Source: an uncultured delta proteobacterium (GTDB lineage: Bacteria > Desulfobacterota > Desulfobacteria > Desulfobacterales > UBA11574). From it: 64,000 bases of DNA. Below the pieces are notes generated by a model that was not told the DNA's origin, searched no databases, and saw nothing but the letters and a program-made list of their open reading frames with translations. Position numbers and translations under genes: made by a program. This document shows, piece after piece, positions 6,855 through 26,170 of the stretch (position 1 is its first letter; the number at the start of each line of letters is the position of its first letter). The DNA is taken from the NCBI GenBank assembly GCA_963752565.1, contig CAVVZC010000019.1, positions 21,447 to 85,446 on the forward strand, read 5' to 3'.

Positions 6855-8018
6855 ATGGATTTTGCGTTATCTAAAGAACTTCAGATGCTGAAAAAGGCGG
6901 TTTCTGAATTTGCGGCCAAAAAAATTGCACCCTATGCTGATGAGTGGGATGCAAAACATTATTTCCCTTACAAAGAAGCCATCAAGCCCATGGGAGAACT
7001 CGGTTTTTTTGGAACGGTCATTCCTGAAAAATATGGTGGAGAAGACATGGGTTGGCTGGCAGCCATGATTGTGACCGAAGAAATCGCAAAAGCCTCCAGT
7101 TCTCTCCGGGTTCAGATCAACATGCAGTGTCTTGGAAGCGCGTTTACCATCTGTAAATACGGGGATGAAGTCTTAAAACAAAAATACATCTCCAAATTAG
7201 TCGACGCCGAATATCTGGGCGGATTTGCCATAACAGAGCCCGATGCCGGTTCCGATGTCATGGCCATGACATCAACCGCCGAAGACAAGGGCGACCACTG
7301 GTGCTTAAACGGTTCCAAAACCTGGATCTCCAATGCAGACGTTGCGGATGTGATCATCTATTATGCTTATACAGATCCGGATAAGGGCACCAAAGGCCTT
7401 TCAGCCTTTGTCGTAGAACCAAAAAACTATAACGGTGTTAAAACCTCGGCTTTAGAAAAAATGGGGTCCCACTCCTCTCCCACCGGTGAAATATTTTTAA
7501 CCAATACTAAGGTCCCCAAGGAGAATATCATTGGAAGGCCCGGAGACGGTGCAAGGATTCTCTTCGGGTCTCTTGACCAAACCCGGCTTTCTGCAGCCGC
7601 CGGTGCCGTTGGTGTTGCACGGGCATGTTTGGAAATATCGCTAAAATATTGCAATGAACGCAAACAGTACGGAAAACCCATCGGCGAGTTTCAAATGAAT
7701 CAGGACATGATCGCCCAGATGTCCACCGAAATTGAAGCAGCCCGTTTTTTGGTTTACAAAGCAGCCTGGGCAAAGGATCAGGGAAACCTGAACAACGGTC
7801 TCGATGTGGCACAGGCAAAATATTTTGCAGGCGAAGTCGCTACCAAATGTGCGGGCTATGCCATGCGGATTCTGGGAGCGTACGGTTATTCCACCGAATA
7901 TCCGGTGGCCCGTTTTTATCGGGATACGCCAACCTATACCATGGTGGAAGGATCGGCCAATATCTGTAAATGGATTATTGCCCTGGATCAGCTCGGCATC
8001 CGAAAGGCAAACCGGTAA
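6855..8018 (+). CDS. Acyl-CoA dehydrogenase, probably glutaryl-CoA dehydrogenase type
   Basis: ACAD signatures (GFAITEPDAGSD, GSKTWISN, YRDTPTYTMVEGSANI). From memory it closely resembles the non-decarboxylating glutaryl-CoA dehydrogenase of Desulfococcus. GGAGG RBS lies before ATG 6855. Confidence 0.85.
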   Translation: MDFALSKELQMLKKAVSEFAAKKIAPYADEWDAKHYFPYKEAIKPMGELGFFGTVIPEKYGGEDMGWLAAMIVTEEIAKASSSLRVQINMQCLGSAFTICKYGDEVLKQKYISKLVDAEYLGGFAITEPDAGSDVMAMTSTAEDKGDHWCLNGSKTWISNADVADVIIYYAYTDPDKGTKGLSAFVVEPKNYNGVKTSALEKMGSHSSPTGEIFLTNTKVPKENIIGRPGDGARILFGSLDQTRLSAAAGAVGVARACLEISLKYCNERKQYGKPIGEFQMNQDMIAQMSTEIEAARFLVYKAAWAKDQGNLNNGLDVAQAKYFAGEVATKCAGYAMRILGAYGYSTEYPVARFYRDTPTYTMVEGSANICKWIIALDQLGIRKANR

Positions 8019-9297: not shown

Positions 9298-9984
9298 ATG
9301 GGAATTCTACTGCTTGAGGGAGGATGCGAATTTCAAGGGAAAATGGAAGAGCCGGACAGGAAAGCACTGACACTGGCCGGGGGAAAAAATGCTAAAGTTG
9401 TCATTATACCGACTGCCGCAGCACCGGACAACAATAGCAAACGAGCCGGCAATACAGCATTGGAATGGTTTGGTACACTCGGTGCAAGAAATATTTCCGC
9501 TTTGCCGATTATAGATAAAGAATCAGCCAATGATCCGGATCTCTCGGCCGAATTGGATCGTGCAAACCTAATTTATATTCTTGGAGGGTTTCCCGGCTAT
9601 CTGGATCACACCTTTAAAGAAAGTCGATGTCTGGATGCCCTTTGGCGCGCTTATGAAAAAGGCGCTGTAATTGCAGGGAGCAGTGCGGGTGCAATGGTTT
9701 TATGTGAGTGGTATTTTGATCCTGAATATAAAAAGATAAAGAAAGGGTTTGGGATCCAAAAAGACGTCATTTTGATTCCACACCATGATACATTTGGTCG
9801 TTCATGGCGTTTGCTATATTTTGATAAAATTTCAGACATCCGATGCATCGGCATAGATGAACAAACAGGAATGATTCGTCAAGCCGACCGTCATCGATGG
9901 ACCGTGTACGGAAAAGGTGGGGTTACGTTATATTTAAAAACGTCCATTGCGTCATATAAGACCGGGCAAACATTTCAGTTATAA
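9298..9984 (+). CDS. Peptidase S51 / cyanophycinase-like (GATase1-like fold) protein
   Basis: VVIIPTAAA, IYILGGFPG and the nucleophile-type motif AGSSAGAMV. Confidence 0.75.
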   Translation: MGILLLEGGCEFQGKMEEPDRKALTLAGGKNAKVVIIPTAAAPDNNSKRAGNTALEWFGTLGARNISALPIIDKESANDPDLSAELDRANLIYILGGFPGYLDHTFKESRCLDALWRAYEKGAVIAGSSAGAMVLCEWYFDPEYKKIKKGFGIQKDVILIPHHDTFGRSWRLLYFDKISDIRCIGIDEQTGMIRQADRHRWTVYGKGGVTLYLKTSIASYKTGQTFQL

Positions 9985-10196
9985 AACACCTGTGACCGAT
10001 GTCGCAGTTCGAAGGTTATCTTTAAGCAATAATAAAAAAGTTCTTTTTCGTGTTTTTACAATTTCGTGCTTTCGTGATAAAGATTTAATTTTTGTTCCTC
10101 GCTTTAGTTTCAGTAAAAACGGAATTTTTTTAAGCAATGATCGGTTTGTCAGGGTTAGGGTTAAACCGTTACACGCGATTTATGAGGTTTTTTTTT

Positions 10197-11459
10197 ATGT
10201 CTTCAAGAAAGGGCATGATCGTTCTGATGGGTTCCGGTGAGCTTACCCCCACAATGGTGGAGGTGCACAAAAATATGCTTGCCCGATTTCCGGATTCTCC
10301 CACCGCTGTTTTCTTGGACACACCTGCCGGTTTTCAACTAAACGTCGATGAGATTTCAAGAAAAGCAGTTGAGTATTTTCGTGTTCACGTTCAACAACAG
10401 CTCAACGTCGCCTCTTACAAATCCTCGGAGAATACAAGCGCATTTGAAGCAGAAACAGCATTTCATATGCTTCGAAATGCAGATTTTGTGCTTGTGGGGC
10501 CGGGTAGTCCCACGTATGCTGTTCGTCAGCTTCAAAAAACGCCGATTCCTGAAATTCTTGTTAATAATATTCAATCCGGTGGATGTTTGGTGGCCGCAAG
10601 TGCCGCTGCTCTTACCATGGGCCGTTTTACTCTTCCTGTGTACGAAATATACAAGGTCGGACATAAAACCCATTGGGTCGATGGGCTCGATGTTCTAGAA
10701 CAATTCGGATTCAATCTGATCGTCGTTCCTCATTGGAACAATGCCGAGGGCGGAACCCACGATACTCGATTCTGTTTTATGGGAAAACCCCGTTTTCAGC
10801 AACTTGAGACGCTTTTACCGGATAACGCGACGATCATAGGCATTGATGAACATACCGCCTGTATCATTGATCTTAATGCCCAACGAATCGATATCCAGGG
10901 AATTGGCAATGTAACCATTCGACAAAAAGGACGTGAAATAAAATTTGGTAAAGGAGATCAAATTCCCCTTGACGTATTGGTTAAAGAAATCAATCGGGAG
11001 GATTGGGCGCCGAAAGACGTTGATGACGTCGAGCAAGCCAGTGATCCGAATCTTTCAAAAAAAAGCTTTTTAAGTAAAGTTAATGCAATAGAATCTTCTT
11101 TTCACAATGGGATGGCGAATCATGATCAAAAAGAGACAACCAATGCCCTTTTGGAATTGGACAGCGCCATTTGGATAGCGCAAAAGAATCTGGAAGATGA
11201 AGAGCGTATTTCTCAAGCGCGAGAGATCCTGAGAGATTCAATCGTGCTTTTAGGCGCCGAATTGGGGGCTTCACCCCGTCGTCTTCGAAAATATTTAGCG
11301 CCTCTTGTTGAACAAATGCTTAAATTAAGGACAAGGTTCAGAAAGGAGCAACAATGGTCTGAGGCTGACCGCATCCGGGAGATCCTTCAACAATCCAATA
11401 TTCAGGTTGAAGATACCAAGGACGGGGTCCGCTGGCATATCATTGATGAAGACATTTAG
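10197..11459 (+). CDS. S51/GATase1-like domain fused to a CysRS-type C-terminal helical module
   Basis: The N-terminal half (IVLMGSGELT, LVGPGSPTY, VAASAAALTMG, IIGIDEHTA) parallels S51 proteins. The C-terminal ~140 aa (FHNGMANHDQKETTNALLELDSAIW ... WSEADRIREILQQSNIQVEDTKDGVRWHI) resembles the C-terminal part of cysteinyl-tRNA synthetases. The start may be 10197 or 10215. Confidence 0.7.
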   Translation: MSSRKGMIVLMGSGELTPTMVEVHKNMLARFPDSPTAVFLDTPAGFQLNVDEISRKAVEYFRVHVQQQLNVASYKSSENTSAFEAETAFHMLRNADFVLVGPGSPTYAVRQLQKTPIPEILVNNIQSGGCLVAASAAALTMGRFTLPVYEIYKVGHKTHWVDGLDVLEQFGFNLIVVPHWNNAEGGTHDTRFCFMGKPRFQQLETLLPDNATIIGIDEHTACIIDLNAQRIDIQGIGNVTIRQKGREIKFGKGDQIPLDVLVKEINREDWAPKDVDDVEQASDPNLSKKSFLSKVNAIESSFHNGMANHDQKETTNALLELDSAIWIAQKNLEDEERISQAREILRDSIVLLGAELGASPRRLRKYLAPLVEQMLKLRTRFRKEQQWSEADRIREILQQSNIQVEDTKDGVRWHIIDEDI

Positions 11460-11833: not shown

Positions 11834-13255
11834 GTGATCAGTCTGTTGGAATTGCCCATATCAGAACTTTTCGGTGTATCATCCGGTCCTATTGGCCTGG
11901 AATCGGAAACACGGGTCCTGTTTCAAGATATAAATCAGCCGATGGCGGACCGATTACCCGATGCCATTTATGTGAAAGGACGATATCATCCCCTTCAGGT
12001 CCTCAAAGAAGATGTAACGACACTATTGTATGCTGATTGGCGTTATCAGCACAGTCCGGTATTGGTGTGCCGTCAGGTCGACGCCGGCCGGGTGGCATGT
12101 ACAACCCTTCAAGACTTTGAAAATTCTGACTTAAAACGGATCATCTATCGGTTATTACGAAAACTTTCAGGACAACCCGTAACTTCTGAGAACCTAAATG
12201 TCGGGATATTGGGGTACGCCCCTTCGGTAGGAGCGCTTCATGGAAACGGCGTTAACACGACTAACGGATTTAAGCTCCACGCCGTTTGTGACTTAAATCC
12301 CCAGCGGTTGAAGATGGCAGAGCATCGATTCCCCGAGACAAAAGTATATTCAAATGCCAAAGAATTAGCCAATGACGATGACGTAGATTTGGTCATCATC
12401 GCCACACCACCCAACAGTCATGCTAAGTTATCCCTTCAGATGATGACGAATAAAAAGCATGTGGTCTGTGAAAAACCTTTGGCACTCAATCGCAGCGAAA
12501 CATACCGGATGTTGGAAATGGCTGAAAAAATGAAGGTCCATTTAAGCTGCCACCAGAACCGGCGCTTTGACCCTGACTTTACGGCGATCAAACGTGCATT
12601 GCATGAAGATCTCATTGGCGATCTTTTCTATATGGAAACGTTTGTCGGCGGGTTCTCGCACCCTTGCGGATACTGGCATTCTCACGAAGAAATCTCCGGA
12701 GGTATTTCCTATGACTGGGGCGCACATTATTTGGACTGGATTGTTGATCTTATCCCTGACCATCCGGAATTTGTCGCTGCCTTTCGTCACAAAAGGGTAT
12801 GGCATGATGTAACCAATGCCGACCACGAAAGGATATGGATTAAATTTAAAGGGGGTAAGGAGGCTGAATTTATTCATTCAGATATTGCTGCTGTTCGCAA
12901 GCCCAAGTGGTACCTTTTAGGCACCAAAGGGGCAATCGTCGGACACTGGAAAGATGTGGCCACGTATCATATCGATCCGGTCCTTTATTTTCACCAACAG
13001 AACATTCCGGCAACGGAGATGATTCCGGATATGACGCTTTTCCGGTGTCATGCTTCAGGACAAATCTTAGAGCAAAAGATGGCCATACCCGAACGAAAAG
13101 ATTACGCATTCCATAAAAATCTTGCAGATCATCTGTTGACCGGTGAACCCCTGCTTTCATCTTTAATGGATTCTGTAAAAGTCGTTTCCATTTTAGAAAC
13201 AGCAGCCCTGAGTGCATCAAAAGGCGGCAGCATGGAGCGATTCGATGAATTTTAG
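11834..13255 (+). CDS. ThuA-like (C-terminal part) fused to Gfo/Idh/MocA oxidoreductase
   Basis: ThuA-type segment (PVLVCRQVDAGRVACTTLQDFEN) is followed by a Rossmann segment (VGILGYAPSVG...DLVIIATPPNSHAKL...VVCEKPLALN). The track GTG start is probably not the native start; see the frameshift feature. Confidence 0.75.
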   Translation: MISLLELPISELFGVSSGPIGLESETRVLFQDINQPMADRLPDAIYVKGRYHPLQVLKEDVTTLLYADWRYQHSPVLVCRQVDAGRVACTTLQDFENSDLKRIIYRLLRKLSGQPVTSENLNVGILGYAPSVGALHGNGVNTTNGFKLHAVCDLNPQRLKMAEHRFPETKVYSNAKELANDDDVDLVIIATPPNSHAKLSLQMMTNKKHVVCEKPLALNRSETYRMLEMAEKMKVHLSCHQNRRFDPDFTAIKRALHEDLIGDLFYMETFVGGFSHPCGYWHSHEEISGGISYDWGAHYLDWIVDLIPDHPEFVAAFRHKRVWHDVTNADHERIWIKFKGGKEAEFIHSDIAAVRKPKWYLLGTKGAIVGHWKDVATYHIDPVLYFHQQNIPATEMIPDMTLFRCHASGQILEQKMAIPERKDYAFHKNLADHLLTGEPLLSSLMDSVKVVSILETAALSASKGGSMERFDEF

Positions 13256-14267
13256 CATAAAATGGGGAATTTTAGGTAACGCCACGATTGCCAGAAAATG
13301 CGTGATTCCAGCCATCTTCAGCTCCGCAAATGGCCGCGTTCATGCTCTGGCATCTCGAAATTTTAAAAAAGCAGAAGCATTAGCAGAAAAATACGACATC
13401 ACCCGATTATACTCGCAATATGAATCCGTTATTGAAGATAAACAGGTCGACATTGTTTACATTCCCCTTCCCAATCATCTTCATAAGGAATGGACGATCA
13501 AAGCCTTAGGGGCTGGAAAACATGTTTTATGTGAAAAACCCCTGGCCTGTAATACTGCCGAGGCCATTGAAATGGCAGAGATTGCGTCGAAAAAAGGCTT
13601 GCATCTCATGGAAGCACTCATGTACCGGTTTCATCCGCGCAGCAGGATCATCCACCAAATGGTTTCAAAGGGGAAAATCGGAACACCGCGACTTGTTCGA
13701 GTTTCGTTTTGTTTCCATATGGAAGAACATATTTTAAAGAAAAAAGAGAATGCCCGTCTGAAAAAAAGGGGGGGAGGCGCGCTTTTAGATGTGGGATGCT
13801 ATGGCGTCAGTGTCGCACGATGGATGATGGGAGAAGATCCTGAAAGCGTTCAAGCCACTGCACATTTTAACTCTGAGGGTGTCGATATACACACAGTCGG
13901 TGTTTTGCACTTTCGAAACGGTGGCCTGGCAACGGTTGAAGCCAGCTTTATTAGTTCTCTGCAGCAGACCTATACCATCGTCGGTGAAGACGGTTCCATT
14001 GAACTTCCACACAATGCCTTTATTCCATGGGAAAAAGATGCAACTTACGTTCATCGTGGCAGACATGAGGAAATCGGCAGACAAGAAGTTATTCCGGGTG
14101 CAGACGAGTATCGGTTGATGGTTGAACATTTTTCAGACGTCCTAATCCACGGGTCCTCACCTTTGGTCCAAATTCACGACAGTATACAAAACATGCGGGT
14201 ACTGGACGCATTGGCCGAGTCGGCAAGATCCGGACAAATGGTTCTAATCCCTAAAAAGCAAATTTAA
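13245..14267 (+). CDS. Gfo/Idh/MocA family oxidoreductase
   Basis: IKWGILGNATIARK, DIVYIPLPNHLHKEW and HVLCEKPLA motifs. ATG 13245 overlaps the upstream stop codon. Confidence 0.85.
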   Translation: MNFSIKWGILGNATIARKCVIPAIFSSANGRVHALASRNFKKAEALAEKYDITRLYSQYESVIEDKQVDIVYIPLPNHLHKEWTIKALGAGKHVLCEKPLACNTAEAIEMAEIASKKGLHLMEALMYRFHPRSRIIHQMVSKGKIGTPRLVRVSFCFHMEEHILKKKENARLKKRGGGALLDVGCYGVSVARWMMGEDPESVQATAHFNSEGVDIHTVGVLHFRNGGLATVEASFISSLQQTYTIVGEDGSIELPHNAFIPWEKDATYVHRGRHEEIGRQEVIPGADEYRLMVEHFSDVLIHGSSPLVQIHDSIQNMRVLDALAESARSGQMVLIPKKQI

Positions 14268-14284: not shown

Positions 14285-15289
14285 ATGTCGATGAACCTGA
14301 ATAAACAAAGAATAGAGATCAAAACAGAACCCTTTGAGCGACTAGAGTCTTTTTATCTAAACAAAAAATTCAATCTTGATTGGAACTGTTTGTTTGTTCT
14401 TCCCCTGTGGCTGAAAACATGGTGGGACACTTTTGGCGAGAAAAATAGACCTGAAATTCTGGCGGGATATCGTCATGGAAAATTAATTGGCATTGCCCCT
14501 TTGCGTATTCAAGATAAAACAGCGCGGTTCATTGGTGGAGAAAATGTGTGCGATTACCAGGACATGATCGTGGCGTCAAATCATCACCATGAATTCTATA
14601 AGGCAATTTTAACCCACCTGAAACAAAAGGGGATACGGTCTCTCCAATTGGGAACATTAAGACACGATTCCATATCGCTAACCCAATTGCCGAATCTGGC
14701 CAAACAAATGGGATATGCTGTTGTTTGTAATCAAGTGGCGTTTAGCTATGAAATAATATTACCCCGCACCTGGGAATCATATCTTTATATGCTCAAGGGA
14801 AAACAGCGCCATGAAATTCGACGAAAATTGAGGCGGCTAAACGAAGCGGGACATGTCCAATTTCGTGTTCTTGAACGATTGGATGAAATATCCGAAGCCA
14901 TGGATACCTTTTTTTCTTTGTTTAAGGCCAGCCGCCCGGACAAGTCTGAATTCCTGACAGAACAAATGGTGTCCTTTTTTCGTTTGTTGGCCCAAAGAAT
15001 GGCTCAACAGGGATTTTTGAGAATGTTTTTTTTAGACATTGATCGAGTACCGGCTGCCGGCGTAATGTGCTTTGACTACAATGATATCCTATTTCTTTAT
15101 AATAATGGATATAATCCTCAATTTAGCAATCTGAGTCCCGGGTTTCTCAGCAAAGTGTATAGTATCAGAAACAGTATTGACCAGGGAAAGCTTCGGTACG
15201 ATCTATTAAAGGGTGATGAAGGGTATAAAAAACGTCTGGGGAGTTCGCCGGTGCCGCTGTATCATTTAAAAATAGATCTTGAAGGATAA
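14285..15289 (+). CDS. GNAT-fold acyltransferase of the CelD/BcsL (FemAB-related) type
   Basis: LPRTWESYLYMLKGKQRHEIRRKLRRL ... NLSPGFLSKVYSIRNSIDQGKLRYDLLKGDEGYKKRLG matches the CelD-type family pattern. Confidence 0.7.
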   Translation: MSMNLNKQRIEIKTEPFERLESFYLNKKFNLDWNCLFVLPLWLKTWWDTFGEKNRPEILAGYRHGKLIGIAPLRIQDKTARFIGGENVCDYQDMIVASNHHHEFYKAILTHLKQKGIRSLQLGTLRHDSISLTQLPNLAKQMGYAVVCNQVAFSYEIILPRTWESYLYMLKGKQRHEIRRKLRRLNEAGHVQFRVLERLDEISEAMDTFFSLFKASRPDKSEFLTEQMVSFFRLLAQRMAQQGFLRMFFLDIDRVPAAGVMCFDYNDILFLYNNGYNPQFSNLSPGFLSKVYSIRNSIDQGKLRYDLLKGDEGYKKRLGSSPVPLYHLKIDLEG

Positions 15290-15331: not shown

Positions 15332-16603
15332 ATGAAGCGGCGTTCAACAGAATTGAAAATTGCCATGCTGAGTATCCATTCAAGTCCCATTGGTGATTTG
15401 GGGACCCAGGATACAGGCGGAATGAGCGTTTATGTTCGGGAAATGGCCAAAGAATTGGGCAGAAAGGGCCATCATATCGACATCTTCACACAGCACAATG
15501 TCTGCAAGCACGATCCGGTCCTACATTTATACGACAACGTTCGTCTCGTCCATTTATCAGGGGGAACACGCGAGAATATCGCCAAATTCTCTCTCTATGA
15601 GATTTTGCCGCAACTATTTGACGAATTAGAATCCTTTCGAATCAAGGAAAATATCACGTATGATATCATCCACAGCCATTATTGGCTCTCAGGGGTTTTA
15701 GGGCTCAAGCTCCAGTCATCCTGGAATGCATATCACCTGGTCACATACCATACCATCGGCGCTGTGAAAAACTTAACCTGTCCAACGGAAAATGCGTCCA
15801 AATTACGGCTGACAAACGAAAATGAACTGGCAAAGCTGTGTGATCAAATTGTCGTTCCCACCCAACAAGATAAGGAACATTTAATCCGGTATTACAACGC
15901 ACCTATTGATAAAATCCGGATTATTCCGTGTGGTGTTAATCTTGGACTTTTCAAACCATTGGACAAAGCATCTGCTCGCCGGTTTTTGGCGTTTTCTACA
16001 GATGATCGCATTGTCTTATATGTGGGACGGTATGCCCCCATTAAAGGACTTGATCGTTTGTTCAAAGCGCTTGGCAATCTTACACATTTTTCTCATCTTC
16101 GCCTGGTCATGGTGGGGGGTGACGGCGAACACTCCCCCATGTTTCGACAGTTAAAATCCAATGCAACGACGCTTCACATCGAAAATCTCATAACGTTTGC
16201 CGGGAGGGTGGACCAGGAAACCCTGCCCCAATATTACAGTGCTGCGGATGTTCTGGTTGTACCATCCTATTATGAGAGCTTCGGTCTTGTGGCACTCGAG
16301 GCATTGGCTTGCGGAACGCCTATTGTGACCGCTTCGGTCGGCGCGATGGAAGAAATTGTAAAAGAGGGCGTTACAGGATATGTCGCAAAGGACCCGAATC
16401 CACAACATTATGCCCGGCTGATCGAAACCATTTTGATAAAGCAGCAGCAGAACGGCTTATCGCCCTCAAAAATTCGGTCATCAGTGGCCCAATATACATG
16501 GACAAGGTCCGCTTCCATGTTACTTGACGCGTACCGGGCGGCATGGACGGATACATCGGAAAATATTTATAAAAATAAAGAGGAGATTCAATTTGTTAAA
16601 TAG
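15332..16603 (+). CDS. GT4 glycosyltransferase, MshA-like (inositol-phosphate glycosyltransferase family)
   Basis: IAMLSIHSSPIGDLGTQDTGGMSVYV, YDIIHSHYWLSG, YHTIGAVKN and ESFGLVALEALACGTP parallel the conserved blocks of MshA. Confidence 0.75.
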   Translation: MKRRSTELKIAMLSIHSSPIGDLGTQDTGGMSVYVREMAKELGRKGHHIDIFTQHNVCKHDPVLHLYDNVRLVHLSGGTRENIAKFSLYEILPQLFDELESFRIKENITYDIIHSHYWLSGVLGLKLQSSWNAYHLVTYHTIGAVKNLTCPTENASKLRLTNENELAKLCDQIVVPTQQDKEHLIRYYNAPIDKIRIIPCGVNLGLFKPLDKASARRFLAFSTDDRIVLYVGRYAPIKGLDRLFKALGNLTHFSHLRLVMVGGDGEHSPMFRQLKSNATTLHIENLITFAGRVDQETLPQYYSAADVLVVPSYYESFGLVALEALACGTPIVTASVGAMEEIVKEGVTGYVAKDPNPQHYARLIETILIKQQQNGLSPSKIRSSVAQYTWTRSASMLLDAYRAAWTDTSENIYKNKEEIQFVK

Positions 16604-17288
16604 ATCCGAAATAATGGTGATAGCAGCACATCCGGATGATGCGGAATTCGGTGCCGCGGGTTCCGTTGCCAGGTGGACCATAGAAGGAAGACGGGTAGTC
16701 TATGTGGTGTGCACCAGCGGGGACAAAGGCACCGACAATCCGGACATACCCCCCCAACAGCTTGCTAAAATTCGAGAAAAAGAGCAAAGAGACGCTGCTG
16801 CGGTATTGGGTGTCTTTGATGTCGTTTTCCTTGGATATCCTGACCAGGGACTCGAAGATACATCGGATTTTCGCAAAGCGATTGTAAGGCAAATCCGAAC
16901 ATATAAACCGGATATGATCGTGACATCTGATCCTTACAGGCGTTACATCTGGCACAGAGACCATCGCATCACCGGACAGGTAACACTGGATGCGGTCTAT
17001 CCTTATGCCCGTGATCTGCTGGCATATCCAGGTTTAATCGAAGAAGGACTCATGCCCCATAAGGTGAAAAAAATCCTGTTCTTCGGAACCGAGGATGTCA
17101 ATTTGCGGATAGACATTACCGGAACCTTTCACCTCAAACTTGAAGCATTGCGTTGTCACAAAAGCCAAATTATCCAGCTTGGCATCCCTGATCTGGAAAA
17201 ATGGCTTTGGCAGCGATGTCAAAAAATGGCCGAAGGCGAATATTTTGAGGTCGCCGAAGCGTTTCATCAGGTGGAGGTGGCCTTTTAA
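16593..17288 (+). CDS. PIG-L/LmbE family N-acetylglucosaminyl deacetylase
   Basis: VIAAHPDDAEFGAAG, CTSGDKG and HRDH metal and active-site motifs. TTG 16593 has GAGGAG 7 nt upstream; ATG 16614 is the alternative start. It overlaps the GT4 stop. Confidence 0.85.
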   Translation: MLNRSEIMVIAAHPDDAEFGAAGSVARWTIEGRRVVYVVCTSGDKGTDNPDIPPQQLAKIREKEQRDAAAVLGVFDVVFLGYPDQGLEDTSDFRKAIVRQIRTYKPDMIVTSDPYRRYIWHRDHRITGQVTLDAVYPYARDLLAYPGLIEEGLMPHKVKKILFFGTEDVNLRIDITGTFHLKLEALRCHKSQIIQLGIPDLEKWLWQRCQKMAEGEYFEVAEAFHQVEVAF

Positions 17289-17360: not shown

Positions 17361-18020
17361 TTATTCCGACAAATGGATTCTCGGGTTAAAATAAGCGATT
17401 GACGGATGCTCATCTTTTTTATCCGTCGAATAAGAAAATGTGGTAATTGATGAAACGGCGGGATATTCTTTTAGGACTCCAAGGGTCGTAAATCTTTTCT
17501 TGTTAAGAGGTGTTGTAGAGAAATGACTCGCCCACAGCATCATGAATAAAATAACGTCACCGTGTGTCACCGCCACGACATGCTTTCCGGAACAGGTGCG
17601 GCGCGTCCTGGATAAAAACTTTTGAACCCTAAACAAGATGTCTTCCGGTTGTTCATATTTCGAATCGACGCCAGTGTAAACATCTCCGGCTCTTAAATCA
17701 ACCGCTTCCGAAGACTGACCTTGAAACGGTGTAAGAACCTCCGTGATTAAGCTCGATTGTCTTGGTTTGAGGTGACGATGATATTTAAGTATTTCAGCTG
17801 CTGTTTGGCGGCAGCGAAGCAGGGGGCTGCTAATAATATCTTCAATGATCAGATCCTTCAAAGACCGAGCCGCTCGAGCCGCTTCAAGGCGCCCTCTTTT
17901 GCTTAAATAAAACCCCGGTAAACGGCCATAAAAAATATTGGATGGATTATGCACACTGGCATGTCGAACCAAAGAAATGCGTGTGACTGCATTTTGGGGA
18001 ATCATTCCGGTTTTTACCAT
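17361..18020 (-). CDS. Histidine phosphatase (phosphoglycerate-mutase-like) family protein
   Basis: ISLVRHASVHN (RH catalytic motif) and VAVTHGDVI (second His). Confidence 0.8.
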   Translation of the reverse strand: MVKTGMIPQNAVTRISLVRHASVHNPSNIFYGRLPGFYLSKRGRLEAARAARSLKDLIIEDIISSPLLRCRQTAAEILKYHRHLKPRQSSLITEVLTPFQGQSSEAVDLRAGDVYTGVDSKYEQPEDILFRVQKFLSRTRRTCSGKHVVAVTHGDVILFMMLWASHFSTTPLNKKRFTTLGVLKEYPAVSSITTFSYSTDKKDEHPSIAYFNPRIHLSE

Positions 18021-18068: not shown

Positions 18069-19175
18069 TCATTTGTTTGAAATAAAATCTTCTAACAATG
18101 AGAATGCAAAATCATCCGTATATTGTACGGGTGGATGTTTGCAATAGTAGGCTGAAGGCGCCTCTAATACGCCACCAATATTTCGTTCGATGGCCAATTT
18201 GCATAGGCGAATACAATCGATGGCAGCGCCAGCGGAATTGGGCGAATCCTCAACAGACAACCTAAGTTCAAGGTTCATAGGTATATCACCAAAAAGTCTG
18301 CCTTCCATTCGAATAAAACACACTTTGTTGTCGTTGAGCCACGGGACATAGTCACTGGGGCCAATATGTATGTTACGGTCTTCAAGCTTTTCTTCCATAA
18401 CGGCTTGAACAGCCACTGTTTTTGATTTCTTTTTTTTATCAAGCCGCTTCCTGTTCAACATATTTAAAAAATCGGTGTTGCCCCCCGTATTTATTTGATA
18501 TGTCTTTTCTAACTTGGCACCCCGTTTTCCAAACAGGTTCGTTAACGCCCGATGAACAATCGTTGCGCCGAGTTGGGATTTAATATCGTCGCCTATTATT
18601 GGAATTCCGCTGGATTTAAACTGTTCGGCCCAAAAAGGATCGCTCGCAATAAAAACAGGAATGTTGTTGATAAATGAAACACCGGCTTCCAGGGCACATT
18701 CGGCATAAAATCTTGATGCCTCTTCCGAACCCACCGGCAAATAATTTAAAAGTATTTCCGTGCCGGAATGCTTTAAAATTTTGATGACGTCGCTTTGGGT
18801 TGGTTCTTTTTCATCACAAAGCAAAAATGTATATTCAGGGTCATAGTTCTTCATATGTTCAGAAAAACCGTCCAATATTTTCCCCATGGACACTCCAACT
18901 CCTGCTTTGGGCATGTTCGTAACAAATTTTTTAGTGCAGTTCGGTCGCTCAAAAATGGCTTCATGAACGTCTTTACCGACTTTTCTCCGATCGATGTCAA
19001 ATGCCGAAACAACTTCAATATCAACAGGTGTATAACCATTGATCGACCAATATAAAATTCCGCTGGCATTATTGTGTTTTTTGCTCTGGTAATATATAGT
19101 TCCCTGAAGGAGCGAACTTGCACAATTACCAACACCGATGATACCGATTTTTATGGGTGTCATATCATCATCCAA
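18069..19175 (-). CDS. ino1: myo-inositol-1-phosphate synthase
   Basis: KIGIIGVGNCASSL, GDDIKSQLGATIVHR, NTGGNTDF and SVEDSPNSAG match the bacterial/archaeal short MIPS type. The start is TTG 19175 or ATG 19163. Confidence 0.9.
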   Translation of the reverse strand: MDDDMTPIKIGIIGVGNCASSLLQGTIYYQSKKHNNASGILYWSINGYTPVDIEVVSAFDIDRRKVGKDVHEAIFERPNCTKKFVTNMPKAGVGVSMGKILDGFSEHMKNYDPEYTFLLCDEKEPTQSDVIKILKHSGTEILLNYLPVGSEEASRFYAECALEAGVSFINNIPVFIASDPFWAEQFKSSGIPIIGDDIKSQLGATIVHRALTNLFGKRGAKLEKTYQINTGGNTDFLNMLNRKRLDKKKKSKTVAVQAVMEEKLEDRNIHIGPSDYVPWLNDNKVCFIRMEGRLFGDIPMNLELRLSVEDSPNSAGAAIDCIRLCKLAIERNIGGVLEAPSAYYCKHPPVQYTDDFAFSLLEDFISNK

Positions 19176-22628: not shown

Positions 22629-22732
22629 AGGCTTAATTCTATTTATTTCAAAAATAATAAAGTTATATGTGATTTAGGCCGATATTAATATCGATCTAAA
22701 TCATCGTTAATAATTATAATGTGGGCATTTAT

Positions 22733-24997
22733 ATGAAACAGAACGAAACAAAAAGTACAGAAAAATCAAAAGATAAAGAAAAAAATATTAATAGCCCAAA
22801 ATTAAATAAAAAACTACTTTTAGATGTAGTGTACCAGCTGAATATTACCAGAAAAAACTTTTTGATTTATCCACCGGGTCACGTCCAGACAAATCAAAGC
22901 ATAAAAAAATGCCATGCTTTACTTCACGATTTACTTGAATTGAGTCCGAAAATAACCATCGGGGTGGCGAAAGATAAGATATTTGTTGGTAACACACTAA
23001 TAGAAGATAAAAATCACATGATCAAAGACTTGGCGTTATCGGTTATAAATCACGAATTAGCTGGTATCACTTTTTACCGAAACATTTCTGCTGATGATCT
23101 TTCTTGTTTTTTTCAGCTGATGGCCAAAGACCCTGAAGAGATTAAAGGTCTTGGGGGATTTGACAAGGCCCTGGCAGACAACAGGATTAAGACCATAAAA
23201 CTTCAGTTCATCGACTACAGCGCATTTCATCATACGGAAGAAATAGAGATACATCGAACAAAAAACCGAAAATTTCAGGCAGAAGGCTCTGCCATCTGGA
23301 CCCAATTTATCAGCGGCCTGCTTTCTGGTTCCCTAACGGTTTCTGATCAAGGAGTTCCTATAGAACAAACCAGGGGAATTAACCCTTCTCAACTTGCATT
23401 ATTCCTAAATGAGAATAAAATTGACACCGAAATTGCCCTGGATACATATCGAACCACTATAAGTAAACGCATACAGGATACTGGCGAATCCATCACTTCT
23501 CCATCAACATATACTAATGATTTCATCGAATTGGATCTATTACTGCAAGAATTAAACCCAAAACTAAAAAAACAATTTTTATCAGCGACCTACAATCAGC
23601 TGAATTCTGCAGGTGAGAATGAGACGACAAAAAATTTATTGACCGATTTTTCTGAGCAAGTCGTTTTGGATATGCTAAGACAGGCAAATGAAGACGGTGA
23701 AGAAATTTCTCCCTCATTAATGAATCTCGTTTACAAAATAACATCTGCCTATGATGGAATAAGTCATCCTGAAGGTGAAATGAACTTCAATAAATCGACA
23801 AATCCTGTAAATCTGCCTTCTGAAACAGGACAGCTTCAAAACATTTTTACTCGCGAAAAATTTGAAGAATATGTAACAACCGATTATGAAAATACCTTAA
23901 ATAATCTGTCCGGTGGCACAGATGACGAAATCGTTGACGCCAATAAGGCTTTACCCATCGAAGATTTTCATAAAGAACTGGAGCCTTCTCATCTGGATTC
24001 GCAAATTGCCCATATTATATTAGCCTTTATGCACAACGATACCAAACCCGTGGAATATGAAAATTACGCCGCTAAACTATACGATATCGCATATGATTTG
24101 TTAAGAGCGGGAGAATTTTCCACGTTATTGAAGATCTTTAAAGCACTGTTTAAACACTATAAAGATAAAGCTGATCCAGAAATTCAATTCATTGCCAAAA
24201 ACACATTAAAAAAATTTCGTGAAGATCAGTTTATCTCCATCGCGGTCGTTTCTTTCGAGAAATGGGCGAAACCTAATGACATCGCCGCCTATGAGTTTCT
24301 ACTATCTCTTGGCTCGATAGTCGTTCCGGAAATGGTTGCGCTATATGGAAAAGGGGAGAGGCCGGAAATTCAAAGTTTAATAGTAAAGCTGTTGATTAGA
24401 TTCCCGGAAGTAACATGTCTCGAAGCCAAAAGGCGGTTTCGTGATCCTCAACCACCCTTTGTAATCAACATGCTAACCCTGGTTCGTAAGATAGGAACAG
24501 AAAAAGACGCTCCTATTGTGAAAAAGCTTTTGGAACATCATGATGTCGATGTTCGAATAACCGCAATGGAAACTCTAATTGAATTAGGAGATCCTGACGG
24601 GACAAATGTTATCAGGAATTTCCTCAAATCCATCTATACCAAAGAGAAATTAAAAGTTATTCAACTGATAGGTACTTATAAAATGGCCGAAATGGTACCG
24701 GATTTGATTTCTTGTATATCTCGGTGGACCTTATTTAAGTTCCAATATGAAAGAAATGAGCAGATTATCACCGCGCTGGGTAAAATTGGAAATCCAAGTG
24801 CAGTACCAGTGTTGGAAAAACTGGCAAAGTGCAGATGGACTATCTGGTCAAGAAGTTTAAAAAGTATGAAGCTTGCCTTATATCAATCGCTTCATGGGTA
24901 TGAATTGTCCCAAATCACCTCTTTATTGAAAATTGGCCAGAGGTCCAAAGATAATCGAATTCGTCAGATATGCCAAAACATTGGGAGTATAAATTAA
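22733..24997 (+). CDS. HEAT-repeat protein with HD-GYP-associated N-terminal module
   Basis: C-terminal HEAT/PBS-lyase-like repeats (DVDVRITAMETLIELGDPDG, ALGKIGNPSAVPVLEKLA). The N-terminal ~130 aa is paralogous to the N-terminus of the next gene. Confidence 0.7.
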   Translation: MKQNETKSTEKSKDKEKNINSPKLNKKLLLDVVYQLNITRKNFLIYPPGHVQTNQSIKKCHALLHDLLELSPKITIGVAKDKIFVGNTLIEDKNHMIKDLALSVINHELAGITFYRNISADDLSCFFQLMAKDPEEIKGLGGFDKALADNRIKTIKLQFIDYSAFHHTEEIEIHRTKNRKFQAEGSAIWTQFISGLLSGSLTVSDQGVPIEQTRGINPSQLALFLNENKIDTEIALDTYRTTISKRIQDTGESITSPSTYTNDFIELDLLLQELNPKLKKQFLSATYNQLNSAGENETTKNLLTDFSEQVVLDMLRQANEDGEEISPSLMNLVYKITSAYDGISHPEGEMNFNKSTNPVNLPSETGQLQNIFTREKFEEYVTTDYENTLNNLSGGTDDEIVDANKALPIEDFHKELEPSHLDSQIAHIILAFMHNDTKPVEYENYAAKLYDIAYDLLRAGEFSTLLKIFKALFKHYKDKADPEIQFIAKNTLKKFREDQFISIAVVSFEKWAKPNDIAAYEFLLSLGSIVVPEMVALYGKGERPEIQSLIVKLLIRFPEVTCLEAKRRFRDPQPPFVINMLTLVRKIGTEKDAPIVKKLLEHHDVDVRITAMETLIELGDPDGTNVIRNFLKSIYTKEKLKVIQLIGTYKMAEMVPDLISCISRWTLFKFQYERNEQIITALGKIGNPSAVPVLEKLAKCRWTIWSRSLKSMKLALYQSLHGYELSQITSLLKIGQRSKDNRIRQICQNIGSIN

Positions 24998-25018
24998 CGT
25001 GTTCAATAGGAATGGGTC

Positions 25019-26170
25019 ATGATGTTAGATTTAAAGAACCATGAAAATATCGAGAAGGTCATCTCAAATATTATTGCTGCCGTAACAAACATACGCCTTT
25101 ATTCGACCAAACATCCTCAGGCCAATCGCTGCCTTGAAGATGCATATGGCGAGCTTTCTAGATTCTTTCTCGAAAAACCGCTCACGACCATTATGTTGAT
25201 TGATGATCAGATGATTGTCGATAACTTGCCTTTTAAGACCAATGGTTCCTGTGTGGACCAATTCGCTCGCATATTAAGAGAAAATGCTATTGAGCATATC
25301 ACTTTCAAATCTGGAATATCCAAACAGGATTTCTATTTGTTCGTCAAACAACTCGCCAATCCTGAAGGTGAAGCGATAAAAAGCAATGAATATCTCAAAC
25401 TCGGCAAGGTTGAATTACGCGTCGATGAAAAGGCCGCGGAACAAATAGACATCAACTTATCAGACAATGAACAGGAACATCTATTAGCACTGAGTTCGGT
25501 TCGGGATGATAAACTCGGTGAAATTCGAATGATGTACAGCCAGATTTCGAAACGTGAAGCAATAGATATTCAAGCTGTAGATGAATTGATTAAGGCCTTT
25601 ATTCGCGGTTTTTCCTATGGAATAAATCCAATTCATATGCTAGCCAAACTTAAGTCTGTTGATGAATATACTTTTACGCATGTTGTCAATGTGTGTATAC
25701 TCACTATGAGTCAAGCGGAATCTTTAGGATTCAAAGGTGAGCAGCTCTATCAAATTGGAATTTCCTCAGTTCTTCATGATTCGGGAAAGTTGTTTATTCC
25801 CGATGAAATCTTAAATAAACCAGGCCGGTTAACGGACAATGAACGATCGATTATTGAGACACACACCGTAAAAGGGGCTCAGTATTTACTTGGATTGGAA
25901 AATATTCCAAAATTGGCAATCTTGGGATCACTTGAGCATCACATTAAGTACGATGGTAAGGGTTATCCAAATATGTCAAAAAAATGGAGGCCCAATATCG
26001 TTAGTCAAATGATTTCCATCGCAGACGTATTTGATGCAATGCGCAGTCGACGAGTTTATAAGGAACCCAAACCGGTATCGTTAATTGTAAAAATTTTGAC
26101 CGAAGAAAAAGGGACATCATTTAATCCTCTGCTGGTTGACAATTTTTTAAAGTTAATCAACAAAAAATAA
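25019..26170 (+). CDS. HD-GYP domain protein (putative c-di-GMP phosphodiesterase)
   Basis: HVVNV, LHDSGKLFIP and HHIKYDGKGYP motifs. Confidence 0.88.
   Translation: MMLDLKNHENIEKVISNIIAAVTNIRLYSTKHPQANRCLEDAYGELSRFFLEKPLTTIMLIDDQMIVDNLPFKTNGSCVDQFARILRENAIEHITFKSGISKQDFYLFVKQLANPEGEAIKSNEYLKLGKVELRVDEKAAEQIDINLSDNEQEHLLALSSVRDDKLGEIRMMYSQISKREAIDIQAVDELIKAFIRGFSYGINPIHMLAKLKSVDEYTFTHVVNVCILTMSQAESLGFKGEQLYQIGISSVLHDSGKLFIPDEILNKPGRLTDNERSIIETHTVKGAQYLLGLENIPKLAILGSLEHHIKYDGKGYPNMSKKWRPNIVSQMISIADVFDAMRSRRVYKEPKPVSLIVKILTEEKGTSFNPLLVDNFLKLINKK

Follow-up and report, generated by a model that had tools for sequence, protein, structure and literature searches.

FUS, a protein joining an S51-peptidase-like domain to the anticodon-side module of cysteinyl-tRNA synthetase, is encoded in a mycothiol-like gene cluster

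FUS (fusion protein) is encoded on a 64,000-nucleotide stretch of DNA (the window) from an uncultured delta proteobacterium. It is composed of an S51-peptidase-like domain, a disordered linker and the helical-bundle/anticodon-binding module of cysteinyl-tRNA synthetase (CysRS; residues 290-415 of FUS), and it has conserved both the anticodon-contacting residues of CysRS and the triad residues of S51. Judged from its sequence, FUS very probably binds tRNA(Cys). We tentatively propose, with slightly less than even confidence, that it docks on Cys-tRNA(Cys), transfers the cysteine to glucosaminyl-inositol and replaces MshC. The FUS family is uncharacterised. Its members are currently labelled only 'hypothetical' or 'cyanophycinase-like exopeptidase', and full-text literature searches revealed neither a description of an S51-CysRS architecture nor one of a mycothiol-type pathway that depends on tRNA. 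The features of the locus are compiled in Table 1.

Table 1. Positions in the window of the fusion gene, its parts and the surrounding genes
Feature	Position	Strand	Details
Small stand-alone S51/cyanophycinase-like protein, 228 aa	9298-9984	+	5' of FUS; Pfam S51 57 bits
FUS coding sequence	10197-11459	+	420 aa
S51-peptidase-like domain (class I glutamine-amidotransferase-like fold)	10197-10991	+	residues 1-265; Pfam, PDB profile search, Foldseek
Predicted triad span	10599-10850	+	Ser135 10599-10601, His179 10731-10733, Glu218 10848-10850
Family-specific insert (NAEGGTHDTRFC..G..R)	within 10599-10850	+	residues 182-199
Variable linker, predicted disordered	10992-11063	+	residues 266-289
Helical-bundle region	11064-11294	+	homologous to E. 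coli CysRS ~331-405; hmmsearch and hhalign
CysS_C anticodon-binding domain	11295-11441	+	residues 367-415; Pfam; aligns with E. coli CysRS 416-459
Codons for the anticodon-contact equivalents R378, R382, W387, D391, R394	11328-11378	+	
Two GFO/IDH/MocA oxidoreductases	11834-13255 and 13212-14267	+	Pfam, NCBIfam
Two-domain GNAT, Acetyltransf_6/FemAB-like	14285-15289	+	PF13480 E 1.7e-31; FemAB_like 28.9 bits
GT4 glycosyltransferase, MshA best match	15332-16603	+	TIGR03449
PIG-L/LmbE-type de-N-acetylase	16524-17288	+	Pfam PIG-L 114 bits
Histidine-phosphatase-superfamily protein	17361-18020	-	Pfam His_Phos_1; candidate sugar-inositol-phosphate phosphatase
myo-Inositol-1-phosphate synthase	18069-19175	-	Pfam Inos-1-P_synth

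The S51-like domain and the linker

The open reading frame of FUS listed for the + strand extends from 10137 to 11459. Translation probably begins with the ATG at 10197, since this codon is preceded at a distance of 9 nt by a Shine-Dalgarno-like GAGG and the same initiator Met is found in 77 full-length orthologues. Pfam assigns residues 8-224 to Peptidase_S51 with 27.9 bits, above the cutoff of 23.9. BLASTP aligns FUS with the small S51 neighbour over 245 columns (23% identity, E 2e-8) and brings together the sequence blocks that the earlier note had matched by eye, including IGIDEHT with IGIDEQT. Using the AlphaFold2 model of FUS (pLDDT 84.6, pTM 0.63) in Foldseek, the acI-B1 actinobacterial peptidase 6nqc was found as top S51 match (E 2.7e-14), PepE and cyanophycinase followed with 7.5e-12 and 1.3e-9, and PDB entries 6a4r and 7uqw are among the matches. 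Similarly, the FUS family profile detects 6nqc in the PDB at E 3e-14. The N-terminal domain had been described as GATase1/S51-like. The S51 part of this description agrees with Pfam, profile and Foldseek searches, and the GATase1 part is ruled out, as the nucleophile is Ser instead of Cys and the best fold matches are all S51 peptidases.

When FUS is aligned with 6nqc or with its small S51 neighbour, Ser135, His179 and Glu218 fall on the triad positions of S51. Among 82 representatives with 31-57% identity to FUS, these residues are found in 81, 82 and 80 proteins, respectively, and D189 and T190 of the family-specific insert in all 82. This means, the Ser-His-Glu triad of S51 is kept in FUS, and it is predicted to be catalytic. 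FUS shares its fold with PepE, cyanophycinase CphB and 6nqc (Foldseek E 2.7e-14 to 1e-9) and an N-terminal GSGE-type motif with 6nqc. However, the nucleophile elbow of S51 peptidases, G-x-S-x-G, is replaced by A-S-A-A-A, and an 8-residue insert as well as the invariant motifs PVYEIYKVG and NAEGGTHDTRFC are present neither in 6nqc nor in the neighbouring S51 protein. The C-terminal CysRS-derived module is an addition of FUS. Furthermore, FUS lies outside the characterised S51 subfamilies: it reaches 21.1 bits with the cyanophycinase model TIGR02069 (cutoff 126.6) and 13.8 bits with the PepE model NF003642 (cutoff 156). The small S51 neighbour, whose gene is located upstream of FUS in about one third to two thirds of the Desulfobacterota loci, scores 76.7 bits with TIGR02069 and is under the same cutoff.

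In the AlphaFold2 model, linker residues 270-286 have a pLDDT below 50, and no conserved columns were found for the linker in the family alignment. The helical-bundle region is modelled as four long helices. Due to the pTM of 0.63 and the disordered linker, the inter-domain geometry is undefined, which counts against the cysteinyl-transfer reading.

The CysRS module and its predicted anticodon contacts

The C-terminal region of FUS is homologous to CysRS residues 331-460. An anticodon-side module of CysRS had been recognised here before by eye, and it is confirmed by profile, profile-profile and structure searches. A profile of the 82 family members detects the CysRS structures 8qhp at E 1.9e-15 and, from E. 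coli, 1li5/1u0b (residues 331-460) at E 1.4e-12; hhalign relates FUS to E. coli CysRS with 97.1% probability and E 7.6e-11. NCBIfam TIGR00435 (cysS) aligns residues 293-414 with model positions 341-464 of 466, the whole-protein score of 27.5 bits being under the cutoff of 340. The Pfam match to CysS_C (PF23493) at residues 367-413 surpasses the threshold of 23 with 23.3 bits, which is borderline for a single sequence, and most family members have CysS_C as a precomputed or detected domain. When the C-terminal model was used alone, 1u0b_B was the sole meaningful Foldseek match (E 1.3e-3, probability 1.00, 132 columns). Both the profiles and this match speak against an unrelated helical bundle, the outcome named beforehand as fatal to the assignment. 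Rigid-body fitting of the C-terminal model on 1u0b is poor (TM 0.36), and this is a further point against the cysteinyl-transfer reading.

Although the helical bundle and anticodon-binding domain of CysRS (PDB 1u0b, E. coli ~331-461) have their homologue in FUS, the Rossmann catalytic core, HIGH/KMSKS, the CP domain and the SC-fold are all missing. In FUS, the module is instead tethered to a hydrolase-fold domain through the disordered linker. A motif scan revealed no HIGH-like or KMSKS-like motif in FUS, and tblastn with E. coli CysRS found no CysRS catalytic core within the window. The supposition that FUS has no synthetase core is borne out by the missing HIGH/KMSKS and the S51-like nature of the N-terminal 265 residues. 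Two motif blocks had been taken as marks of CysRS: AD.IRD.L...GI.LED...G..W is indeed strongly conserved, whereas only F302 and D310 are kept from F..AM.DDFNT. Length variants of FUS comprise 363-565 aa; nine out of ten end in CysS_C and one is without any Pfam match. None of the ten length variants tested carries the anticodon-binding domain of another synthetase on a paralogue of the N-terminal domain.

In E. coli CysRS, R423, R427, W432, D436 and R439 contact the anticodon of tRNA-Cys (PMC12684709, PMC13449415). Three independent alignments assign these residues in the same register to R378, R382, W387, D391 and R394 of FUS. Across the 82 representatives, R378, D391 and R394 are invariant, R382 occurs in 80 and an aromatic residue at position 387 in 81. 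Conservation of 95% or more is reached by only seven of the 134 positions in the C-terminal region, four of which correspond to the contacts R423, R427, D436 and R439 (enrichment P 1.3e-5). In addition, the equivalents of CysRS D451 and W458 are retained.

These data bear on the reading that FUS is a normal peptidase or amidase of the S51 type, acting for instance on a small peptide or thiol conjugate, with a CysRS-derived tail that does not bind tRNA and was exapted for oligomerisation or protein-protein contacts. The weak conservation of the helical C-terminal part (mean top-residue frequency 0.42), the borderline single-sequence CysS_C match and the loose superposition on CysRS are in its favour. 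We consider it very unlikely, as the few invariant C-terminal residues are those contacting the anticodon and CysS_C is kept at the C-terminus of almost all length variants.

A mycothiol-like cluster without MshC

The cluster is mycothiol-like and no canonical mycothiol cluster, since its MshA, MshB and Ino1 matches all stay under the NCBIfam equivalog cutoffs. The GT4 reaches 311 bits with the MshA model (cutoff 462.5) and 111 bits with BshA, and the inositol-phosphate synthase 412 bits with TIGR03450 mycothiol_INO1 (cutoff 638). The PIG-L protein, whose true start is likely the ATG near 16611, matches BshB1 (92 bits) better than Mca (69 bits) or MshB (43 bits, cutoff 224), all under cutoffs. 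Because the GT4, PIG-L and Ino1 matches fall short in this way, the acceptor may be other than GlcN-inositol. The phosphatase gene, which is syntenic in L087, yields a weak match to the MSMEG_4193 family. The two oxidoreductases resemble inositol 2-dehydrogenases and glycoside 3-dehydrogenases, again under cutoffs, and form an optional module present at 12 of 20 and 46 of 68 loci. No tRNA genes were found in the window, no Rfam family reached its gathering score, and promoter and terminator scans of the window gave counts at or under shuffle expectation.

The GNAT contains an invariant, strongly basic helix (GKQRHEIRRKLRRL, G172-L185) that opens domain 2, and, close to the C-terminus, the invariant aromatic-Lys pair Y314-K315. 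Such pairs are F304-K305 in FemX and F328-K329 in DhpH-C (2026 review). In the PDB, no usable match was obtained with the GNAT sequence alone or with a GNAT profile of 16 members. By Pfam and motif resemblance only, the protein is probably Fem-like.

The FUS family, found in Desulfobacterota, Actinomycetota and Chloroflexota, comprises 454 or more clusters at 50% identity. A survey of neighbours across genomes, as recommended by the earlier note, reveals a link to GT4 and PIG-L genes in Desulfobacterota and mostly an alpha/beta-hydrolase (ABH) in the other two phyla. In Desulfobacterota, FUS is almost always followed by the Fem-like GNAT, the MshA-like GT4 and the PIG-L deacetylase. Counted over loci with enough downstream sequence for the gene concerned, orthologues with at least 65% identity to FUS are accompanied by the GNAT in 17 of 17, by the GT4 in 14 of 15 and by the PIG-L gene in 13 of 14 cases, and by the inositol-phosphate synthase, which is adjacent in the closest clade of FUS, at 9 of 11 loci. 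Orthologues with 50-65% identity have the GNAT at 50 of 57 and the GT4 at 45 of 50 loci. The order FUS-(GFO-GFO)-GNAT-GT4-PIG-L is kept in over 100 loci, with identities as low as about 50%, and where the GFO pair is missing, FUS directly adjoins the GNAT. The link recurs at two distant loci with 40% identity: at L146, the order is GFO-GFO-MshA-like GT4-ABH-FUS, and at L141, FUS is located beside an MshA-like GT4 (451 bits) and a member of the same GNAT family. MshA-like GT4s are paired with this GNAT family in Actinomycetota, too.

Most copies from Actinomycetota and Chloroflexota follow an alpha/beta-hydrolase gene and have no adjoining GT4 or PIG-L gene; their neighbourhood on Acidimicrobiia-type contigs is the housekeeping one of CtaA-ClpS-DUF2017. 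Therefore, the core function of the family need not be thiol synthesis. The earlier note would have been undermined by a widespread architecture with no link to GT4/PIG-L. Widespread it is, but the link exists in Desulfobacterota and at L141 and L146. No MshC/CysRS catalytic core was detected by tblastn with E. coli CysRS in the window and about 1.95 Mb of fetched FUS flanks. Together with the GNAT/GT4/PIG-L synteny, this substantiates the initial impression of an MshA/MshB-like cluster without MshC, which is real and conserved.

Possible roles: transfer of cysteine, deacylation or partnership with the GNAT

In the proposed mechanism, FUS would be a serine acyl-enzyme catalyst aimed at tRNA(Cys). 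The CysRS-derived helical bundle and the anticodon-binding domain would dock on Cys-tRNA(Cys) at its GCA anticodon, and the flexible linker of about 25 residues could allow the S51-like domain to reach the tRNA 3' end. Ser135, aided by His179 and Glu218, would then attack the aminoacyl ester to yield a cysteinyl-enzyme. For comparison, PepE makes an aspartyl-enzyme, and the acyl-enzymes of S51 exopeptidases carry one N-terminal aminoacyl or dipeptidyl group. Subsequently, the cysteinyl group would be handed to the free amine of glucosaminyl-inositol, an acceptor which the adjacent inositol-phosphate synthase, MshA-like GT4, phosphatase and PIG-L deacetylase might provide. This step would stand in for the ATP-dependent ligase MshC. 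Finally, the adjacent Fem-like GNAT could either append another residue or, like MshD, cap the amine of the cysteine.

From the synteny, we infer that the cluster probably belongs to the GlcN-inositol pathway. FUS may take the place of MshC, and we hypothesize that FUS itself performs the cysteinyl transfer. This reading is supported by the CysRS homology with its anticodon contacts, the kept triad, the synteny and the lack of a nearby MshC core as well as by the link recurring at 40% identity, the context of locus L083 (see below) and S51 acyl-enzyme chemistry. What counts against it, besides the model geometry and the poor fit on 1u0b, is that we know of no S51-fold enzyme recorded to use an aminoacyl-tRNA. 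The wider proposal of an unrecognised mycothiol-like thiol route, in which an S51-fold catalyst with a CysRS anticodon reader draws cysteine from Cys-tRNA(Cys) and no ligase of the MshC or BshC type has to activate it, is possible but on the doubtful side.

MshC would supply the step missing from the MshA/MshB/Ino1-like cluster, and both MshC and FUS are partly derived from CysRS. MshC, a CysRS paralogue, keeps the ATP-dependent catalytic core and is without an anticodon-binding domain. In contrast, the ATP- and Zn-dependent CysRS-like catalytic domain is absent from FUS, which makes FUS the reverse of MshC. The chemistry proposed for FUS, in which an amine receives the aminoacyl group of an aminoacyl-tRNA without translation, is like that of FemX, VlmA, DhpH-C, PacB, CDPS, PEARLs and AcmF, and the PEARL TglB uses Cys-tRNA(Cys) (2026 review). 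The aminoacyl-tRNA-dependent folds in this review comprise only GNAT/Fem, CDPS, LanB/PEARL and aaRS-like ones, whereas FUS has the S51 fold. FemABX-type transferases have a double GNAT fold, and Fem enzymes read the acceptor stem (2026 review). Pfam finds a GNAT domain in the neighbour and none in FUS, which is predicted to read the anticodon and would differ further from these transferases by its proposed covalent Ser-acyl intermediate.

For aminoacyl-tRNA-dependent transfer, the Fem-like GNAT of the operon is a more conventional candidate than FUS. It might be the Cys-tRNA(Cys)-dependent transferase that acts on the amino sugar, and FUS its partner that either confers anticodon-level selectivity for tRNA(Cys) as an adaptor or scaffold or disposes of substrates or products that are not wanted; the role of partner would fall to the alpha/beta-hydrolase in Actinomycetota. 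Fem hallmarks of the GNAT (two GNAT domains, basic helix, Y314-K315), its gene adjoining that of FUS wherever the GFO pair is missing and its pairing with an MshA-like GT4 in Actinomycetota agree with such a division of labour. Nevertheless, we regard it as improbable: a Ser-His-Glu triad that hardly varies and additional invariant motifs argue for catalysis by FUS, FUS is widespread without the GNAT, and no sequence-level PDB relative was found to confirm a Fem fold of the GNAT. Furthermore, Fem-type enzymes work without an anticodon reader (2026 review).

Another unlikely reading makes FUS an aminoacyl-tRNA hydrolase with specificity for tRNA(Cys), which would act in trans in quality control or deacylation. 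Here, the C-terminal module would select tRNA(Cys), and the S51 domain would remove an aminoacyl group that is wrong or damaged, e.g. a non-cognate residue or a Cys that has been oxidised or S-modified, or release Cys. The position in a thiol operon would reflect a common role in cysteine/redox homeostasis rather than biosynthesis. The characterised S51 proteins in the Foldseek match list are all hydrolases, the broad family has many lineages without biosynthetic clustering, among them the Acidimicrobiia-type contigs with their housekeeping genes, and conserved anticodon contacts suit a deacylase as well as a transferase. However, for a quality-control factor, one would not expect synteny with GT4, PIG-L and GNAT that is tight and long-range in Desulfobacterota and recurs in distant loci. 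CysRS is specific enough to need no editing, and we know of no mischarging problem of tRNA(Cys) in CysRS-bearing bacteria. The model for such a deacylase would be YbaK/ProXp, AlaX and DTD, stand-alone hydrolases of aminoacyl-tRNA. Their folds are unrelated to FUS and they lack a CysRS-type anticodon-binding domain; Pfam, NCBIfam and other searches detected no homology of FUS to trans-editing factors.

If FUS binds tRNA(Cys), it would clearly exemplify how the anticodon reader of a synthetase can be put to use in directing another kind of enzyme to one tRNA. Should it transfer cysteine as well, it would bring a new fold to the few structural classes of enzymes that draw aminoacyl-tRNA away from translation and explain how an MshA/MshB/Ino1-type cluster works without MshC. 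It would also predict that sulfate-reducing Desulfobacterota, whose major low-molecular-weight thiols are, to our knowledge, poorly defined, make a sugar-inositol thiol that contains cysteine and has not been described so far; the same might apply to deep-branching Actinomycetota and Chloroflexota. Since the family is large and its labels are uninformative, one biochemical result could allow the re-annotation of thousands of genes.

At the Chloroflexota locus L083, genes of TIGR03847 and TIGR03843 ('SCO1664 family') precede the ABH-FUS pair. In Streptomyces coelicolor, SCO1664, the namesake of this family, presumably adjoins mshC (SCO1663), as we assume from the locus-tag numbering. The TIGR03847/TIGR03843 neighbours, seen at this one Chloroflexota locus only (L083/L084), are suggestive of a displacement of mshC in situ by ABH-FUS.

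Architecture and origin of the fusion protein

FUS, the 420 aa fusion protein, is composed of an S51-like domain (residues 1-265), a linker and a C-terminal module derived from cysteinyl-tRNA synthetase (CysRS). Its most likely start is the ATG at 10197, which is preceded by GAGG 9 nt upstream and whose methionine is shared by 77 orthologues from other genomes. Proteins with 86-90% identity to FUS are encoded in Desulfobacterales and Desulfobacteraceae metagenome-assembled genomes (MAGs), and on these grounds the window probably derives from Desulfobacterota; its G+C content is ~43%.

The N-terminal domain matches Peptidase_S51 (Pfam) over residues 8-224 with 27.9 bits (cutoff 23.9). Its alignment with the adjoining 228 aa S51 protein (23% identity, E 2e-8) spans the blocks from which the earlier note had deduced their likeness. 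In the AlphaFold2 model (131 sequences; mean pLDDT 84.6, pTM 0.63), residues 270-286 have a pLDDT <50 and the relative placing of the domains is of low confidence. Using residues 1-260, Foldseek retrieved the S51 peptidases 6nqc from an acI-B1 actinobacterium (E 2.7e-14), PepE (7.5e-12) and cyanophycinase (1.3e-9); PDB entries 6a4r and 7uqw are also among the matches of the FUS model. FUS shares the S51 fold family but falls in none of the characterised subfamilies. The S51 Ser-His-Glu positions align with S135, H179 and E218, which are kept in 81, 82 and 80 of 82 diverse family representatives, respectively. Furthermore, the family has invariant features of its own: GSGE (12-15), GPGSP (101-105), PVYEIYKVG (147-155) and the insert NAEGGTHDTRFC..G..R (182-199), the latter two being missing or altered in 6nqc and in the small adjoining S51 protein. 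The near-invariant triad and these features together indicate that the domain may be an active catalyst with a substrate unlike that of PepE or cyanophycinase.

For the C-terminal region, CysS_C (Pfam) matches residues 367-413 with 23.3 bits (cutoff 23), and residues 293-414 align to the final 125 positions of the NCBIfam cysS model. A profile of the 82 representatives detects the CysRS structures 8qhp (E 1.9e-15), 3tqo (1.1e-12) and E. coli 1li5/1u0b (1.4e-12, residues 331-460 of the E. coli enzyme), and hhalign against E. coli CysRS yields a probability of 97.1% (E 7.6e-11). Modelled separately, residues 287-420 (pLDDT 88.8) form five helices and then a beta-hairpin, and the sole meaningful PDB match of this model is 1u0b_B (E 1.3e-3, probability 1.00, 132 columns). 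Superposed as a rigid body, the model fits this chain poorly (TM 0.36, rmsd 11.9 Å), so that structure backs the sequence evidence but is not sufficient alone. A motif search of the protein revealed neither a HIGH-like nor a KMSKS-like motif. Thus, the S51-like domain, the CysRS module and the missing synthetase core were all found as the earlier note had proposed, and the described architecture is virtually certain.

Because it has no catalytic core, FUS is neither a CysRS nor an MshC. MshC has retained the CysRS core and dropped the anticodon reader; FUS is its mirror, with the reader retained and the core dropped. It lies outside the GNAT, CDPS, LanB and aaRS-like classes, the only classes of aminoacyl-tRNA enzymes listed in a 2026 review (PMC12945691), and can best be regarded as a novel assembly of known parts. 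An exhaustive search of 1.84 billion representatives yielded 1639 clusters at E ≤ 1e-3, of which 454 reach E ≤ 1e-30; among the matches listed, the best ones are mostly full-length (~400-430 aa) down to 34% identity. They are labelled 'hypothetical', 'cyanophycinase-like exopeptidase' or 'peptidase E', and named members belong to Desulfobacterota, Actinomycetota (many Acidimicrobiia) and Chloroflexota (Limnocylindrales). No NCBIfam model reached its cutoff on FUS, and a literature search found no description of this architecture.

Conservation of the anticodon contacts

In complex 1u0b, four residues of E. coli CysRS take part in the contacts to G34 of tRNA(Cys): Arg427 and Asp436 through hydrogen bonds, Trp432 through stacking and Arg423 through a water network (PMC12684709). 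Arg427, Trp432, Asp436 and Arg439 of the anticodon domain were mutated to re-target CysRS (PMC13449415). According to three independent alignments, these five positions are occupied in FUS by R378 (E. coli R423; R in 82/82 representatives), R382 (R427; R in 80/82, K in 2), W387 (W432; aromatic in 81/82), D391 (D436; D in 82/82) and R394 (R439; R in 82/82). The representatives are only 31-57% identical to FUS, and only 7 of 134 C-terminal positions are ≥95% conserved. Four of the seven are literature contacts (hypergeometric P 1.3e-5); the others are L397, D406 and W413, the last two pairing with E. coli D451 and W458. CysS_C is still located at the C-terminal end in nine of ten length variants tested (363-565 aa), one of which has lost most of the helical bundle, while the tenth has no Pfam match. 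From the selective conservation of the contacts and the retention of CysS_C, we strongly infer that the module has kept its recognition of the tRNA(Cys) anticodon GCA, and FUS probably binds this tRNA. The same selective conservation argues against FUS being a peptidase with a tail that has lost tRNA binding.

Gene context in the window and in other genomes

Genes on the FUS strand form a row, on which two minus-strand genes converge (see table).

Features of the window
Feature	Position	Strand	Remark
Small S51 protein	9298-9984	+	first in row, 5' of FUS
FUS ORF	10137..11459	+	from ORF list
Two GFO/IDH/MocA oxidoreductases	11834-14267	+	after FUS in gene order
N-terminal extension of first oxidoreductase	11834-12200	+	~120 aa, no Pfam match
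Two-domain Acetyltransf_6/FemAB-like GNAT	14285-15289	+	after oxidoreductase pair
Basic helix of GNAT	14798-14839	+	residues 172-185
Tyr314-Lys315 of GNAT	15224-15229	+	near C-terminus
GT4		+	after GNAT; MshA best match, 311 bits (cutoff 462.5); BshA only 111 bits
PIG-L/LmbE deacetylase		+	after GT4; last in row
5' part of PIG-L ORF as listed	16524-16611	+	overlaps GT4 gene by 80 nt; Pfam match from residue 31
Histidine-phosphatase-family protein	17361-18020	-	converging
myo-Inositol-1-phosphate synthase	18069-19175	-	converging; mycothiol_INO1 412 bits (cutoff 638)
HEAT-repeat protein, then HD-domain protein	22721-26170	+	HEAT-repeat protein 758 aa, poorly annotated
Aldehyde:ferredoxin oxidoreductase	26645-28450	+	at least four frame-shifted ORF pieces
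LOG/'lysine decarboxylase'-like protein	47279-49111	+	610 aa, poorly annotated

The PIG-L gene more likely starts at an ATG (MVIAAHPDD) near 16611, just past the GT4 stop. The L146 counterpart (1711-2300) of the first oxidoreductase has a ThuA-like N-terminal domain (29.5 bits, under the cutoff), which hints at a ThuA/ThuB-type 3-keto-sugar module in the cluster.

Neither the 64-kb window nor the ~1.95 Mb of flanking sequence fetched contains a CysRS/MshC core, in agreement with the earlier note's MshA/MshB-like cluster without MshC. The gene set thus offers a candidate for every mycothiol-type step except the cysteine ligase. Because all pathway matches fall under equivalog cutoffs, the cluster resembles one for mycothiol without being canonical.

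Synteny was counted at loci with enough downstream sequence, a gene being scored anywhere in the fetched locus. At ≥65% FUS identity, the GNAT is present in 17/17, GT4 in 14/15, PIG-L in 13/14 and the inositol-phosphate synthase in 9/11 loci; at 50-65%, the counts are 50/57, 45/50, 30/46 and 1/34. Neither the oxidoreductase pair nor the small S51 protein is a constant member of the locus. The link to GT4 and PIG-L genes that the earlier note had considered is common at ≥50% identity; under ~44%, the usual neighbour is an alpha/beta-hydrolase (ABH) gene immediately upstream, often with a 4-bp overlap. The link to the sugar pathway nevertheless reappears among these distant members: L146 carries the row ThuA-like-GFO, GFO, MshA-like GT4 (363 bits), ABH, FUS, and in L141 (2016-4168) FUS is inserted between Pro_dh and a pair of MshA-like GT4 (451 bits) and GNAT of the same family as in the window. 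Other Actinomycetota (L172, 10001-12270; L173, 10001-12260) have an operon of MshA-like GT4 and Acetyltransf_6 GNAT (428-441 bits). These actinomycetotal GT4s (428-451 bits) lie just below the MshA equivalog cutoff of 462.5, and proline dehydrogenase adjoins them. ABH might take the place of PIG-L as the deacetylase in pathways of the same kind, which is reasonable though unproven.

In a Limnocylindrales MAG (L083, 2731-6646), TIGR03847 (DUF3090) and TIGR03843 ('SCO1664 family') are directly followed by ABH-FUS. In S. coelicolor, mshC is SCO1663 (PMC10552308), which the SCO1664 gene adjoins as judged from locus-tag numbering. L083 looks like an in-situ replacement of mshC by ABH-FUS, a single instance, as the arrangement is confined to L083 and its short duplicate L084. 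Five Acidimicrobiia-type contigs (L081, L168-L171; FUS placed at 8001 or 10001) share the order CtaA (COX15)-ClpS-DUF2017-(DegV, PlsY)-ABH-FUS; in L170, ClpS, DUF2017, ABH and FUS follow one another without interruption on a single strand. Such housekeeping context in Actinomycetota, like the hydrolase ancestry of FUS, agrees with a tRNA(Cys)-specific deacylase, a reading that fits the biosynthetic synteny poorly. In Desulfobacterota, participation of FUS in an amino-sugar-inositol pathway is somewhat favoured.

A possible cysteinyl transfer

Catalysis by S51 exopeptidases passes through a covalent acyl-enzyme that bears a single N-terminal residue in PepE and a single dipeptide in cyanophycinase. 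The acyl group of an aminoacyl-tRNA ester is of this kind too, its alpha-amine being free, and on these grounds we propose a mechanism for Cys-tRNA(Cys). The C-terminal module would hold the tRNA via its anticodon, the flexible linker would allow the S51-like domain to reach A76, and Ser135 would take the cysteinyl group. The amine of GlcN-inositol, a putative acceptor suggested by the sub-threshold family matches, would resolve the ester to yield Cys-GlcN-Ins without an MshC-type ligase, and the Fem-like GNAT would then modify the cysteine amine like MshD. That FUS itself is the cysteinyl transferase is a tentative assignment, with somewhat less than an even chance.

Alternatively, the GNAT might be the real Cys-tRNA-dependent transferase and FUS an accessory. 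Two invariant features of the GNAT, the highly basic helix GKQRHEIRRKLRRL and the pair Tyr314-Lys315, are similar to elements of FemX and DhpH-C, namely a helix that binds tRNA and a catalytic aromatic-Lys pair (PMC12945691); a PDB sequence relative confirming a Fem-type GNAT was not found. An accessory role is at odds with the conserved triad of FUS and with its wide occurrence without a GNAT of this family.

Elsewhere in the window, the LOG/'lysine decarboxylase'-like domain is the only one assigned in its protein, C-terminal to ~490 residues without assignment. In the split aldehyde:ferredoxin oxidoreductase gene, AFOR_N positions 1-81, 95-146 and 152-198 and AFOR_C positions 282-342 lie in different frames; either the gene is a pseudogene or this stretch contains assembly errors.
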